53,070 nucleotides of DNA from an uncultured Salinarchaeum sp. (GCA_964489365.1 CAZAYR010000002.1:1-53070), one strand, 5' to 3'; counted from the first letter of the stretch, positions 27,447 through 30,165 are shown. A program made the numbers and translations. Notes: generated by a model from the sequence alone, not told the origin.

Positions 27447-28466
27447 ATGACGGCGAGCGGGATCGACGAAACAACCATCTTCGACACGCCGCTTCTCGCG
27501 CTCGACCTCGATCTCGATGTGGACGCCACCGTGCTCGGGAAAGCCGAATGGTATAACCTGTATGAAGCCCCGCACGGCGGGGGATCGGTCAAGTCCCGCA
27601 TCGCCAAAGGGATGCTCGATCACGCCGAGGAAACCGGCGAGCTCGAACCGGGCATGACCGTCATCGAACCGACCTCCGGCAATACCGGGAGCGAGGTCGC
27701 CCGCCTCGCGACCAGCCGCGGGTACGACGTCGAGATCGTGATGCCGGATAACGCCGCCGGGGGCAAGATCCAGGCGGTGGAGGATGCCGGCGCGGAGATC
27801 CACTTCGTCGACGCGGATCTCGGCTACGACGCAGTCATCGAACGCTGTGAGAGCCTCGTCGAGGAAGACCCGGCCCGGTACTATCGACCGAACCAGTACG
27901 AGAACCCGGGGAACCCCGGCACGCACGAGGAAACAACAGCGGAGGAGATCTATGACGCCACCGACGGGGCCGTGACCCACTTCGTCGCCGGCGTTGGGAC
28001 CGGCGGGACCGTCACGGGAACGGGTCGCGGGCTCCATGCCAGCGATCCGTCGATCGAAGTCGTCGGCTTCGAGCCGGGGGAACCGCTGCACGCCATTGAC
28101 GGCCTGAAGTACCTCCGCACGGGCGAGCACTACCATCCGGGGACATACGACCGGGACGTGCTCGACCGGCTGGCGTACGTCGACACGTCGGCCGCGTATG
28201 ACCGCGCTCGGGAACTCCGGACGCGCTACGAGGATCGCCAGATATCCATCGTCGATCCGGGGCAGCACGACGAGTCGACGGTACGGGAACACGCCCGCGT
28301 CCAGGGACAGTTCCTCGTCGGAACCTCCAGTGGAGCGGCCGTTCAGGTCGTCTATGACCTCGTAGCGCAGGACGTCCTGGACGCGGACGACTGTGTCGTC
28401 GTGATGCTCGCCGATCGCGGGGACAAATACGCGGATATCCCGCTGTGGTCGGACTATCTGCAATAA
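27447..28466 (+). CDS. Cysteine synthase family PLP enzyme (CysM/CysK-like, fold type II)
   Basis: PLP-lysine context GGSVKSRIA, Asn loop EPTSGNTGSE, Gly loop AGVGTGGTVTG. Start at ATG 27447 (MTASGIDE). Confidence 0.85.
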   Translation: MTASGIDETTIFDTPLLALDLDLDVDATVLGKAEWYNLYEAPHGGGSVKSRIAKGMLDHAEETGELEPGMTVIEPTSGNTGSEVARLATSRGYDVEIVMPDNAAGGKIQAVEDAGAEIHFVDADLGYDAVIERCESLVEEDPARYYRPNQYENPGNPGTHEETTAEEIYDATDGAVTHFVAGVGTGGTVTGTGRGLHASDPSIEVVGFEPGEPLHAIDGLKYLRTGEHYHPGTYDRDVLDRLAYVDTSAAYDRARELRTRYEDRQISIVDPGQHDESTVREHARVQGQFLVGTSSGAAVQVVYDLVAQDVLDADDCVVVMLADRGDKYADIPLWSDYLQ

Positions 28467-28475
28467 CGAGTGTCG

Positions 28476-28739
28476 TCAGCAACCGCCGCTGGCCGCCGGC
28501 ATGACGCGGAGGACGGAATCCGCGCCCAGGCTGGCGTCGAGACTGTCGACTTCCTCGCCATCGACGAAGACGTTGATATATTCCCGGATATCGCCGTTTT
28601 CGATCACGCTATCGCGGAGTGCGTTCCCGTGTTCGGCCGCATGGGCCTCCAGGGCTTCGCCGACGGTTTCCCCGTTCACTTCGACGCGTTCGGCACCCCC
28701 ACCGCCGGCCAGCACTGCCGGGACCTTGATCTCGGGCAT
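28476..28739 (-). CDS. MoaD/ThiS/SAMP-like beta-grasp sulfur-carrier/ubiquitin-like protein, C-terminus ...SGG-C
   Basis: 87 aa. VEVNGETVGEALEA...INVFVDGEEV...LRVMPAASGGC* resembles haloarchaeal SAMP1/MoaD, with one extra Cys after the di-glycine. Start at ATG 28739. The longer 114-aa version adds an Arg-rich extension. Confidence 0.8.
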   Translation of the reverse strand: MPEIKVPAVLAGGGGAERVEVNGETVGEALEAHAAEHGNALRDSVIENGDIREYINVFVDGEEVDSLDASLGADSVLRVMPAASGGC

Positions 28740-28849
28740 ATACCGCTTTTCCCACCTCACCGAAAAAAAGGGCCCGTTTCCGGCAGCCCGAGCCGTAACC
28801 CGTGACGGGCTCGTCCGCAATCGAGGCAGAAGCGACGGGGACCCGCGGC

Positions 28850-28855
28850 TTTAAC
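28850..28855 (+). promoter_or_regulatory. TATA-box candidate (TTTAAC) for the E1 gene
   Basis: Centred about 27 nt upstream of ATG 28880. Confidence 0.4.
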
Positions 28856-28879
28856 CTCCTCGATCACTTCCGTTCTTAT

Positions 28880-29731
28880 ATGTCCACACTCGATCTCGAT
28901 CCGACGCAACTGGATCGGTACTCGCGGCACATCTTCCTCGATGGCGTCGGGTCGGAGGGACAGGCCGAGCTCCTTGACGCGAACGTCCTCGTGCTCGGCG
29001 CCGGCGGCCTTGGCGCCCCGATCATCCAGTATCTCGCCGCGGCCGGCGTCGGAACCCTGGGCATCGCGGACGATGACGTCGTCGAACGCTCGAACCTCCA
29101 GCGCCAGATCATCCACCGCGACGCTGATATCGGACGCGAGAAGGTCGAGAGTGCCCGCGAGTTCGTCGAAGAGTTGAATCCCGACATCCACGTCAACGAG
29201 CACCCGGTGCGGGTGACGCCGGAGAACGTCGAGGACCTCATCGCGGAGTATGACTTCGTCGTCGACGGGACGGACAACTTCGAGACGCGCTATCTCGTTA
29301 ACGACGCCTGTACGCTCGCTGGCGTACCCTTTTCTCACGGCGCCATCTTCCGCTTCGAGGGCCAAATTACCTCCTTTACGGATCCCGATGGGCCCTGTTA
29401 CCGGTGTATTTTCCCCGAGGCGCCGCCGGACGGCATGGTGCCGAACTGTGCCACAGCGGGAGTGCTCGGCGTGCTTCCGGGCACCGTGGGCTGCATCCAG
29501 GCCACAGAGGCGGTCAAGTGGATCCTCGACAAGGGCGAACTGCTCGACGGCCGGATGATCTTCTACGACGCCGCCGAGATGACCTTCGACGAGATGCGTA
29601 TCGAGCCGAAGCCGGACTGTCCCGTCTGCGGGGACGATCCGGAAATCGAGTCCGTCCACGACGTCGAGTACACCGCCTCGTGCGCCATCGACGCCGGCGG
29701 GCCCGAGTTGGAAGTGGAAGCGACCGACTAA
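28880..29731 (+). CDS. ubaA: MoeB/ThiF/UbaA-type E1-like adenylyltransferase (no fused rhodanese domain)
   Basis: RYSRHI, LVLGAGGLGAPIIQYLAAAGVG, ERSNLQRQ, Cys loop PNCATAGVLG, and zinc CxxC pairs (CYRC, CPVC). Start at ATG 28880 (MSTLDLDPTQLDRYSRH). Confidence 0.9.
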   Translation: MSTLDLDPTQLDRYSRHIFLDGVGSEGQAELLDANVLVLGAGGLGAPIIQYLAAAGVGTLGIADDDVVERSNLQRQIIHRDADIGREKVESAREFVEELNPDIHVNEHPVRVTPENVEDLIAEYDFVVDGTDNFETRYLVNDACTLAGVPFSHGAIFRFEGQITSFTDPDGPCYRCIFPEAPPDGMVPNCATAGVLGVLPGTVGCIQATEAVKWILDKGELLDGRMIFYDAAEMTFDEMRIEPKPDCPVCGDDPEIESVHDVEYTASCAIDAGGPELEVEATD

Positions 29732-30165
29732 TCTCGCGAGCGTTCGTCGGCATCCGCGATCACGACCCGTTCCTGTTCGAAGCGCTCTCCGTCGGCCCGC
29801 CAGCGCCAGGACCCGACGTACGGGTAGCCGTCCAGCGAGACGATAACATAGGACAGGTCCGGCCAGGTCGCCCGCGCCGCGTCGGTGGCGCTCGGCTGAG
29901 CCGGCCCGGCCGGATGTGAGTGATAAAACCCGGCGACATCCCGCCCGTTTTCTTCGATCTCTTCGGTGAGCCGGAGCTGCTCCTCGGGGTCGATCCGGTA
30001 GCGGATCTGGGGGGTGTCGGCAACGTTCTCGGCCGGGTGGACGGCGTCCACGATCGTCCGGTCCGGTCCGTACTGCCCACCCAGGATCCCGCAGACCTCG
30101 TTGCCCTCGCCGTCGTACGCGCGGTAAACGAGTTCGTCGTAGATGGCCCGGGGGAGTTCGATCAT
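29728..30165 (-). CDS. JAMM/MPN+ metalloprotease (HvJAMM1 / Mec-like)
   Basis: EVCGILGG (catalytic Glu) and HSHPAGPAQPSATD (HxH-x7-S-x2-D). 145 aa. Its stop codon overlaps the E1 stop codon on the other strand. Confidence 0.9.
   Translation of the reverse strand: MIELPRAIYDELVYRAYDGEGNEVCGILGGQYGPDRTIVDAVHPAENVADTPQIRYRIDPEEQLRLTEEIEENGRDVAGFYHSHPAGPAQPSATDAARATWPDLSYVIVSLDGYPYVGSWRWRADGERFEQERVVIADADERSRD

Follow-up and report, generated by a model that had tools for sequence, protein, structure and literature searches.

A conserved haloarchaeal gene cluster that may make cysteine on a protein thiocarboxylate

Introduction

Do haloarchaea make cysteine on a carrier protein? The question is raised by four adjacent genes (positions 27447-30165) in a 53,070-nucleotide stretch of DNA from an uncultured Salinarchaeum sp. 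(GCA_964489365.1, CAZAYR010000002.1:1-53070), which as a whole is called the window below. The genes encode a pyridoxal 5'-phosphate (PLP)-dependent enzyme related to cysteine synthases, a small beta-grasp carrier, an E1-like adenylyltransferase and a JAMM metalloprotease. Proteins of these kinds form the CysO/CysM/Mec/MoeZ cysteine route of Mycobacterium tuberculosis, an established precedent for which a complex structure (3DWG) is available. A preliminary description of the window had proposed a route of the same logic for the haloarchaeon. Our analysis gives this proposal an even chance: by analogy with the mycobacterial proteins, the genes may belong to a conserved haloarchaeal module for sulfur assimilation in which a protein thiocarboxylate serves to make cysteine.

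Combinations of such genes have been noted before. As class 4c, Iyer, Burroughs and Aravind described in 2006 the association of ThiS/MoaD, E1-rhodanese, JAB and cysteine synthase genes in bacteria (PMC1779556). The sets were found in Proteobacteria, Acidobacteria, Salinibacter and Chloroflexus and a coupling of sulfur transfer to cysteine production was proposed for them; the haloarchaeal set is not listed in that survey (PMC1779556). In 2010, Makarova and Koonin reported a few links of archaeal E1 genes to cysteine synthase, and their paper makes no mention of extended carrier precursors (PMC2948915). As class 4c has been on record for bacteria since 2006 and archaeal E1-cysteine synthase links since 2010, the novelty claimed in the preliminary description was too high. 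A search of a literature library found no paper in which the haloarchaeal cluster is described or tested.

Results

Four intact genes that recur in haloarchaea

The gene of the PLP enzyme (27447-28466, plus strand) encodes 339 residues with a Pfam PALP match of 161.6 bits. It is followed by the genes of the carrier (28476-28739, minus strand, 87 residues), the E1 (28880-29731, plus strand, 283 residues) and the JAMM/MPN+ protease (29728-30165, minus strand, 145 residues, Pfam Prok-JAB 74.3 bits). The gene boundaries first read from the sequence were borne out by open reading frame (ORF) listing, Pfam and NCBIfam scans and direct reading, as were the intact catalytic motifs and the assignment to the PALP, ThiS/MoaD, ThiF and Prok-JAB families. 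The stop codons of the PLP and carrier genes are separated by 9 bp, and the E1 stop codon overlaps that of the JAMM gene. Since the strands alternate (+ - + -), the four genes do not form one operon. The left part of the window contains genes for DnaK, DnaJ, adenylate kinase, CMP kinase, Cbf5/TruB and IlvD, indicating that the cluster is chromosomal in this organism. Its closest relative is an uncultured Halobacteriales metagenome-assembled genome, whose PLP enzyme is 84% and whose E1 is 94% identical.

The PLP enzyme was used as query against one genome per GTDB species. Homologues were found in about 60 haloarchaeal loci at 66-84% identity, followed by a second group at 48-57% and by bacterial CysK/M proteins at about 35%. 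All cluster proteins of the window were compared with the PLP homologue loci by tblastn, and counts were made in the 39 loci where the flanks on either side measured 5 kb or more, a carrier, E1 or JAMM gene being called linked when it lay within 10 kb of the PLP gene. The four-gene neighbourhood predicted from the window proved to be recurrent in haloarchaea, as carrier, E1 and JAMM genes accompany the PLP gene in 35 of the 39 loci. Three flanking genes of sulfur metabolism are present as well, namely those of a single-domain rhodanese (39/39), a TusA-family protein (34/39) and a YeeE/YedE-family membrane protein (27/39). This neighbourhood is not a product of chance. The usual spacing from the PLP gene is that of the window, with the carrier at +0.7 kb (minus strand), the E1 at +1.5 kb (plus strand) and the JAMM gene at +2 to +4.5 kb (minus strand).

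Clusters were found in at least nine named genera, with Halorubrum contributing the majority and the others including Halobellus, Halolamina, Haloquadratum, Halovenus, Salinarchaeum, Halodesulfurarchaeum, Halobiforma and Natrononativus; no Haloferax cluster was among the top matches listed. Three copies lie on megaplasmids. Gene order on Halorubrum salinarum pHAR01 is the same as in the window, and a 768-kb replicon of Natrononativus carries all eleven cluster genes in permuted order. On a Halolamina plasmid (L002, 11000-16056) the PLP gene is separated from the triad of carrier, E1 and JAMM genes by inserted IS200/IS605 tnpA and TnpB elements and a nucleotidyltransferase gene, and all cluster parts are retained despite these insertions. 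The set is split in Halobiforma nitratireducens, where the triad stands beside a YeeE gene on one contig and the TusA and PLP genes are found on a separate one (L024). Pairwise distance matrices of six cluster proteins correlate at 0.73-0.91, which fits inheritance as a unit.

The tightest pairing is that of the TusA, rhodanese and PLP genes, kept in four of the 39 loci (L007, L033, L052 and L071) without an adjacent carrier, E1 or JAMM gene. Given this persistence without the triad, the PLP enzyme could take relay sulfur or thiosulfate directly, as does E. coli CysM, which converts thiosulfate to S-sulfocysteine. The cluster might then consist of two modules with a common sulfur source, in which the PLP enzyme uses thiosulfate, sulfide or persulfide directly and the triad supplies another acceptor with thiocarboxylate sulfur. 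The split set of Halobiforma nitratireducens would agree with such an arrangement, YeeE and the TusA-like YeeD are an established pair for thiosulfate uptake in bacteria (PMC11073785), and the PLP enzyme resembles CysK and CysM in general, not M. tuberculosis CysM specifically. The close association of triad and PLP gene, however, holds across genera and replicon types, and no other acceptor (MoaE, thiazole synthase or tRNA thiolase) is conserved in the cluster. Moreover, an adjacent JAMM gene is kept where the carrier needs no trimming, which fits the release of an amino-acid adduct in known systems. On balance we consider two separate modules rather unlikely.

Two side observations concern other PLP enzymes. 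In the distant group (48-57% identity; Halarchaeum, Salarchaeum, Halospeciosus and others), an E1 gene is found nearby in five loci (L058, L063, L064, L066 and L067), at 0.9-2.5 kb from PLP genes whose products are 50-54% identical to that of the window. No carrier or JAMM gene was found at the loci of this group; a 74-residue ORF of L066 ending in ...PPISGG was rejected as a carrier, being of low complexity and overlapping a likely real gene on the other strand. In Halobiforma nitratireducens, a PLP enzyme of Cys/Met metabolism (PF01053; L081, 1093-2256) is encoded 3 kb from the carrier-E1-JAMM-YeeE group, an arrangement that recalls carrier-dependent homocysteine synthesis.

A dedicated E1 paralogue and a JAMM protease

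The true start of the E1 is the ATG at 28880, as the resulting 283 residues match the homologues. ThiF is its only Pfam domain (residues 40-275 of the 309-residue ORF), and it carries the pairs CYRC and CPVC together with the cysteine of an NCATAG motif. The protein had been described as an E1 with a Cys loop and zinc CxxC pairs that lacks a rhodanese domain, which Pfam and direct reading confirm. It scores 315 on the MoeZ model, against a cut-off of 647, and the separate 110-residue rhodanese is encoded 1.9 kb away.

Because the E1 passes the UbaA equivalog NF047750 (478 against 450) and an E1 from a moaA/moaE context in Halobacterium jilantaiense was equally similar, we first suspected it to be the housekeeping UbaA. 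A query of the Haloferax volcanii UbaA type, 96% identical to a Haloferax protein, returned a different set of proteins of 270 residues, including ones from Halorubrum and Halobellus. A neighbour-joining tree of both sets displayed two deep clades. Clade A comprises the H. volcanii type (270 residues, 514-527 bits on the UbaA model), and clade B the E1 of the window together with every cluster-linked E1 (283-287 residues, 470-478 bits). Both occur in the same genome. In Halorubrum sp. DTA98 (GCA_048380895.1), a clade A gene is located among housekeeping genes on JBLWMN010000026 and a clade B gene in the cluster on JBLWMN010000021 (L025). In Halobellus ordinarius ZY16 (GCA_031823395.1), clade A is found in housekeeping context on JAVQKJ010000009 and the cluster on JAVQKJ010000014 (L043). 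No SAMP or JAMM gene was found in the canonical UbaA contexts of these two assemblies.

In view of the second clade and the coexistence of both types, the housekeeping reading was rejected. The preliminary description had named as a counter-argument that E1 and JAMM protein might be the only UbaA and JAMM1 orthologues of the genome; for the E1 this does not apply. In the lineages of Halorubrum sp. DTA98 and Halobellus ordinarius, at least, the E1 of the cluster is an additional paralogue with a dedicated role. The E1s at the distant PLP loci branch beside clade A. A further ThiF-family E1, 51% identical to that of the window, is encoded on a Natrialba magadii plasmid (NC_013923.1, 194723-195520), and the genome paper of this species lists two UbaA homologues and an E1-JAMM fusion.

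The JAMM protein has the complete motif E...HSH-x7-S-x2-D, in agreement with the first reading. It scores 149.8 on the NCBIfam desampylase model NF041370 (cut-off 130), a broad model on which ten 50%-identity representatives reach 131-172. Among its closest solved relatives is the MPN protein 2KCQ of Salinibacter ruber.

A carrier made with residues after its Gly-Gly

The carrier matches Pfam ThiS with 27.5 (cut-off 22.5). In the PDB it matches Amycolatopsis CysO (4n6e_B) and H. volcanii SAMP1 best, each with about 27 bits, ahead of M. tuberculosis CysO with 20.6 bits. It aligns with the CysO structures over its full length up to the Gly-Gly at residues 85-86, after which a Cys87 follows. Size and fold of the 87-residue beta-grasp protein thus correspond to what had been proposed, while its C-terminus is ...PAASGG-C and not a plain Gly-Gly. 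The codons of the window carrier show that the terminal cysteine is not a trivial error.

Carrier ORFs were extended to their stop codons in 52 loci. One to eight residues follow the Gly-Gly in 48 of the 52 relatives, and only three end in plain Gly-Gly. A single arginine is the usual tail (41 carriers); the others are RR, Q, QSK, GF and tails of eight residues, with one sequence frame-shifted. Two further loci have GG-CSP and GG-TRA. As the tail varies in sequence and length behind an invariant PAASGG, it looks like a propeptide that is removed. E1 adenylation needs a free terminal glycine, which makes maturation of the carrier obligatory. The sequences thus imply that the carrier is made as a precursor and matured by proteolysis, for which the adjacent JAMM protein is the obvious candidate. 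The idea that the terminal cysteine of the window mimics a carrier-Cys intermediate was rejected, because the usual extension is arginine and both sequence and length vary.

Precedents for such trimming exist in bacteria. In the QbsE/QbsD system of thioquinolobactin synthesis and in the HcyS/HcyD/HcyF/MetY system of Wolinella homocysteine synthesis, extra C-terminal residues of the carrier are removed by the adjacent JAMM protein before activation by the E1, and in Wolinella the JAMM protein also releases the amino-acid product. Both differ from the haloarchaeal cluster in their acceptor chemistry, which leads to a siderophore in one case and to homocysteine by a fold-type I enzyme in the other, and both are bacterial. 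HvJAMM1 cuts a linear peptide bond exactly after the Gly-Gly of SAMP1 (PMC4443979). In two Haloquadratum loci the carrier ends in plain Gly-Gly, yet the JAMM gene is kept next to the PLP gene. This suggests a second role beyond trimming, for example release of a carrier-cysteine adduct.

The best family matches of the carrier are SAMP1 and archaeal MoaD, both below the NCBIfam cut-offs (45.1 against 60 and 33.4 against 49.5, respectively). Comparison with the SAMP1-3/UbaA/HvJAMM1 proteins of H. volcanii, whose genes are dispersed, judging from the locus tags, revealed likenesses at all three positions: E1 and JAMM protein pass models based on UbaA and HvJAMM1, and among archaeal proteins the carrier is most like SAMP1. 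The triad may also be read as a sampylation-type system, in which the carrier is conjugated to and removed from enzymes of sulfur assimilation, for instance the PLP enzyme, as a means of regulation. The conserved cysteine of the E1 would suit this role, and SAMP1 and HvJAMM1 regulate MoaE in Haloferax volcanii (PMC4443979). In contrast to the H. volcanii proteins, the cluster E1 belongs to a separate clade and coexists with canonical UbaA, which the cluster-bearing genomes keep for general sampylation, and the carrier misses the SAMP1 cut-off and is synthesized with additional C-terminal residues. Furthermore, the cluster is full of persulfide-relay proteins, for which conjugation has no need. 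Sampylation would in any case be compatible with a role as sulfur carrier, because UbaA does both in H. volcanii (PMC3403918). Regulation by sampylation appears improbable to us.

A MoaD-like carrier and a MoeB-type E1 could also belong to a branch of molybdenum cofactor synthesis that merely lies near sulfur-relay genes. Such a function is suggested by the two best family matches of the carrier and by Halobacterium jilantaiense, in which a clade B E1 (L080, 8001-8849), 77% identical to that of the window, is encoded between moaA and moaE. No carrier, JAMM or PLP gene was found near this E1 gene in L080, so that clade B is not tied exclusively to the cluster. The carrier, however, stays under both cut-offs, JAMM proteins are not part of classical molybdenum cofactor operons (PMC1779556), and neither a MoaA nor a MoaE homologue was found in the window or in any other cluster locus fetched. 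A function in cofactor synthesis is therefore very unlikely.

A haloarchaeal branch of cysteine synthases

The PALP domain of the PLP enzyme contains the Schiff-base lysine, the Asn loop, the Gly-rich phosphate loop and the serine at the pyridine nitrogen. The lysine of GSVKSR, the TSGNTG loop, GVGTGGT and the serine of TSSG are invariant in 39 homologues, with K49, S77-G81, G184-T188 and S294 as the positions concerned; a family-specific loop, HAIDGLKYL, is invariant as well. NCBIfam models were matched below their cut-offs throughout. The best were cysKM (TIGR01136, a subfamily model; 236 against 344), cysM (205 against 394) and cysK (203 against 351), and a second cysM equivalog gave 183 against 413. 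Relatives are named by PGAP only as PLP-dependent cysteine synthase family protein. Judged by these sequence features, the enzyme is a genuine fold-type II member of the cysteine synthase superfamily that forms a haloarchaeal clade of its own.

The label CysM-like given in the preliminary description is too specific. The enzyme shares 37% of 214 aligned residues with the verified sequence of M. tuberculosis CysM, and CysK-type structures outscore CysM in the sequence search. The AlphaFold2 model has a predicted local distance difference test score (pLDDT) of 90.9, with low values in the HAIDGLKYL loop. Foldseek found CysK, CysM, CBS and related structures at TM scores of about 0.8 with none preferred, so that the fold as examined with AlphaFold2 and Foldseek does not separate carrier-dependent from sulfide-dependent enzymes. 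The alignment near Arg220 of M. tuberculosis CysM is ambiguous, as the haloarchaeal HAIDGLKYLR segment with its invariant K221 has an insertion of five residues and low pLDDT. By these comparisons, it is no orthologue of CysM from M. tuberculosis, and its sequence indicates neither the amino acid nor the sulfur nucleophile that it uses.

Sulfur genes and intergenic regions around the core

Profile scans confirmed the YeeE, SaoD/DsrE, rhodanese and TusA genes that had been recognized beside the core. Closest to it is the gene of the TusA-family sulfurtransferase (27021-27320, minus strand; 99 residues, CPYP motif, Pfam TusA 40.8 bits), which typically lies 0.8 kb from the PLP gene across the loci. 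The single-domain rhodanese (26687-27019, minus strand; 110 residues, loop CPIGQSS, Pfam Rhodanese 71.3 bits) starts 1 nt after the TusA stop codon, and among NCBIfam models it is best matched by GlpE and by rhodanese domains fused to MoeB/MoeZ. A sulfur donor acting in trans had been postulated to replace the rhodanese domain of MoeZ, and the nearly constant adjacency of a stand-alone rhodanese and TusA fits such a donor.

Further away, a SaoD/DsrE-family small sulfur-relay protein (26280-26663, plus strand; NCBIfam NF040913, 185.6 against 152) is encoded in 15 of the 39 loci at variable positions. It is followed on the left by the YeeE/YedE-family membrane protein (24981-26210, plus strand; Pfam Sulf_transp 183.5 bits), a candidate thiosulfate importer. 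The latter lies far under the cut-offs of the TsuA equivalogs (134 against 400, NCBIfam), and the TusA-like protein reaches 29.8 on the TsuB equivalog (cut-off 147.5, NCBIfam). The E. coli set of YeeE (TsuA), YeeD (TsuB) and a CysM-type enzyme also combines a YeeE-family protein, a TusA-like partner and a cysteine synthase homologue, there for use of thiosulfate, but works without carrier, E1 or JAMM protein (PMC11073785).

Three genes on the minus strand complete the sulfur cluster. A beta-propeller-like protein of 416 residues with a twin-arginine/lipobox-like N-terminus (23515-24765; faint Pfam matches) is present in 24 of the 39 loci. The tandem-rhodanese sulfurtransferase (22405-23433; two Pfam Rhodanese stretches, 102.5 bits) is present in 27 and has an N-terminal twin-arginine/lipobox-like signal, RRSLL...AGC, as read directly from its sequence. 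A YncE-like beta-propeller protein of 322 residues (21435-22403; weak Pfam match) is present in 26, and its homologue on Halorubrum salinarum pHAR01 is annotated as YncE family protein.

Two divergent intergenic regions flank the PLP-carrier pair. The one between TusA and PLP gene (27321-27446) measures 126 bp and presumably contains promoters in both directions; its median length in 46 loci is 150 bp, and the word CCGGCAG occurs in 61%. The other, between carrier and E1 gene, measures 140 bp (28740-28879). In the window, the word CCGGCAGCC occurs in both. In 15-16 Halorubrum loci (including L001, L006, L009, L014 and L021) the word GCACGACCG/CGGTCGTGC, absent from the window, is found at a fixed position in both regions, some 70 nt upstream of the start of the PLP gene and some 95 nt upstream of that of the E1 gene. 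From its sequence and placement, it may be a shared operator that co-regulates both halves of the cluster.

On the right of the core, a small DUF5827 gene (about 30253-30525, plus strand) lies directly beside the JAMM gene. Pfam further identified a major facilitator superfamily (MFS) transporter and a persulfide-dioxygenase-like fusion of rhodanese and metallo-beta-lactamase (30536-33015, minus strand). This pair is loosely associated and lies outside the conserved core. Halomontanus, Natrinema, Haloarcula and Halopiger have it on megaplasmids, with nucleotide identities of 74-79%, and the MFS gene adjoins the cluster only in the window and in L003. Adjoining the fusion gene is the gene of an HTH_10 regulator with an HVO_A0563-type N-terminal domain (32960-33751, plus strand), whose ORF overlaps the longest ORF of the fusion gene by 56 bp; the protein is a candidate local regulator. 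Positions 15814-20384, immediately upstream of the sulfur cluster, encode a multi-PAS histidine kinase of 1063 residues, a stand-alone receiver and an Fe/Mn superoxide dismutase.

Discussion

The pathway proposed here builds on what was observed, namely the domains with their intact catalytic residues, the linkage of the genes, the paralogy of the E1 and the precursor form of the carrier, and takes its chemical steps from the M. tuberculosis precedent. YeeE would import thiosulfate or another sulfane-sulfur compound, possibly helped by the exported tandem rhodanese and the beta-propeller proteins. The sulfane sulfur would be carried as persulfides by TusA and the single-domain rhodanese. The carrier would be translated with one to eight residues after its Gly-Gly (a cysteine in the window), which the JAMM protein would trim. 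The clade B E1 would then adenylate the exposed C-terminal glycine, and the persulfide relay would turn the adenylate into a thiocarboxylate, the separate rhodanese standing in for the one fused to bacterial MoeZ. The PLP enzyme would form an aminoacrylate from O-phosphoserine or O-acetylserine and add the carrier thiocarboxylate. After an S-to-N acyl shift, the JAMM protein would hydrolyse the carrier-Gly-Gly-Cys amide, yielding cysteine and the regenerated carrier.

Several points weigh against this pathway. With alternating strands, co-transcription cannot be invoked. The PLP enzyme resembles CysK enzymes that use sulfide at least as closely as it does M. tuberculosis CysM, and nothing in its sequence proves carrier binding. 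The correlation of the distance matrices is also expected from ordinary vertical inheritance. The most constant unit is TusA-rhodanese-PLP, which persists in loci without an adjacent triad, and the Halobacterium jilantaiense clade B E1 is found in the context of molybdenum cofactor genes. Carrier-thiocarboxylate cysteine synthesis, as first suggested for the window, is partly supported, by linkage, profile assignments, E1 paralogy and the adjacent rhodanese and TusA, and is to be corrected in that the PLP enzyme is not specifically CysM-like and the genes are not one operon. The wider claim, that many haloarchaea possess a full route from thiosulfate to cysteine which avoids free sulfide and uses a dedicated pro-carrier, a JAMM protease, an E1 paralogue and a split TusA/rhodanese donor, has in our view a little less than an even chance.

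Comparison with the known systems points out what the cluster shares with them. With the mycobacterial route it has in common a carrier ending in ...A-x-GG, an E1, a fold-type II PLP enzyme for beta-replacement and a JAMM hydrolase. In contrast to that route, its E1 has no fused rhodanese and a separate rhodanese and TusA are encoded alongside, its PLP enzyme fails the cysM equivalog, its carrier is a precursor with residues after the Gly-Gly, and the genes are archaeal, alternate in strand and are embedded in a YeeE-based uptake cluster. Class 4c has the same four gene families and the same predicted link of sulfur transfer to cysteine production, but its E1 is fused to rhodanese, whereas the haloarchaeal E1 is separate from it and accompanied by genes for TusA, YeeE and DsrE-like proteins.

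The four-part logic itself is already known and will not surprise a specialist. What is new compared with it is that the rhodanese is split from the E1, that TusA is added, that the E1 is a dedicated paralogue and that the carrier is made in a pro-form. Also new are a PLP enzyme non-orthologous to CysM, the alternating strands, the setting in a YeeE cluster and the wide distribution in Halobacteria. Being well defined, widely conserved and open to experiment, the cluster is suited to the study of archaeal thiocarboxylate chemistry, for which H. volcanii would be a clean heterologous host, as no Haloferax cluster was among the top matches.

Sampylation and sulfur mobilisation depend on one and the same UbaA in the Haloferax model (PMC3403918). 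The cluster would be a natural example of an archaeal ubiquitin-like system of which a second copy is reserved for a single metabolic task. A natural pro-form of a SAMP-like carrier would give a JAMM protease a defined physiological substrate. Little is known of how archaea incorporate sulfur and from which donors (PMC11323500), and TusA and the single-domain rhodanese are candidates for the sulfurtransferases that load archaeal E1-activated carriers. If the wider claim is true, the route would be the first archaeal amino-acid synthesis that depends on a thiocarboxylate, and it would identify the long-missing sulfur donors for thiocarboxylation by archaeal E1 and ubiquitin-like proteins. Should the chemistry hold, thiocarboxylate cysteine synthesis, characterised in mycobacteria, would no longer be only a bacterial trait and would represent a recurrent solution for aerobes that handle reduced sulfur under oxidising conditions.

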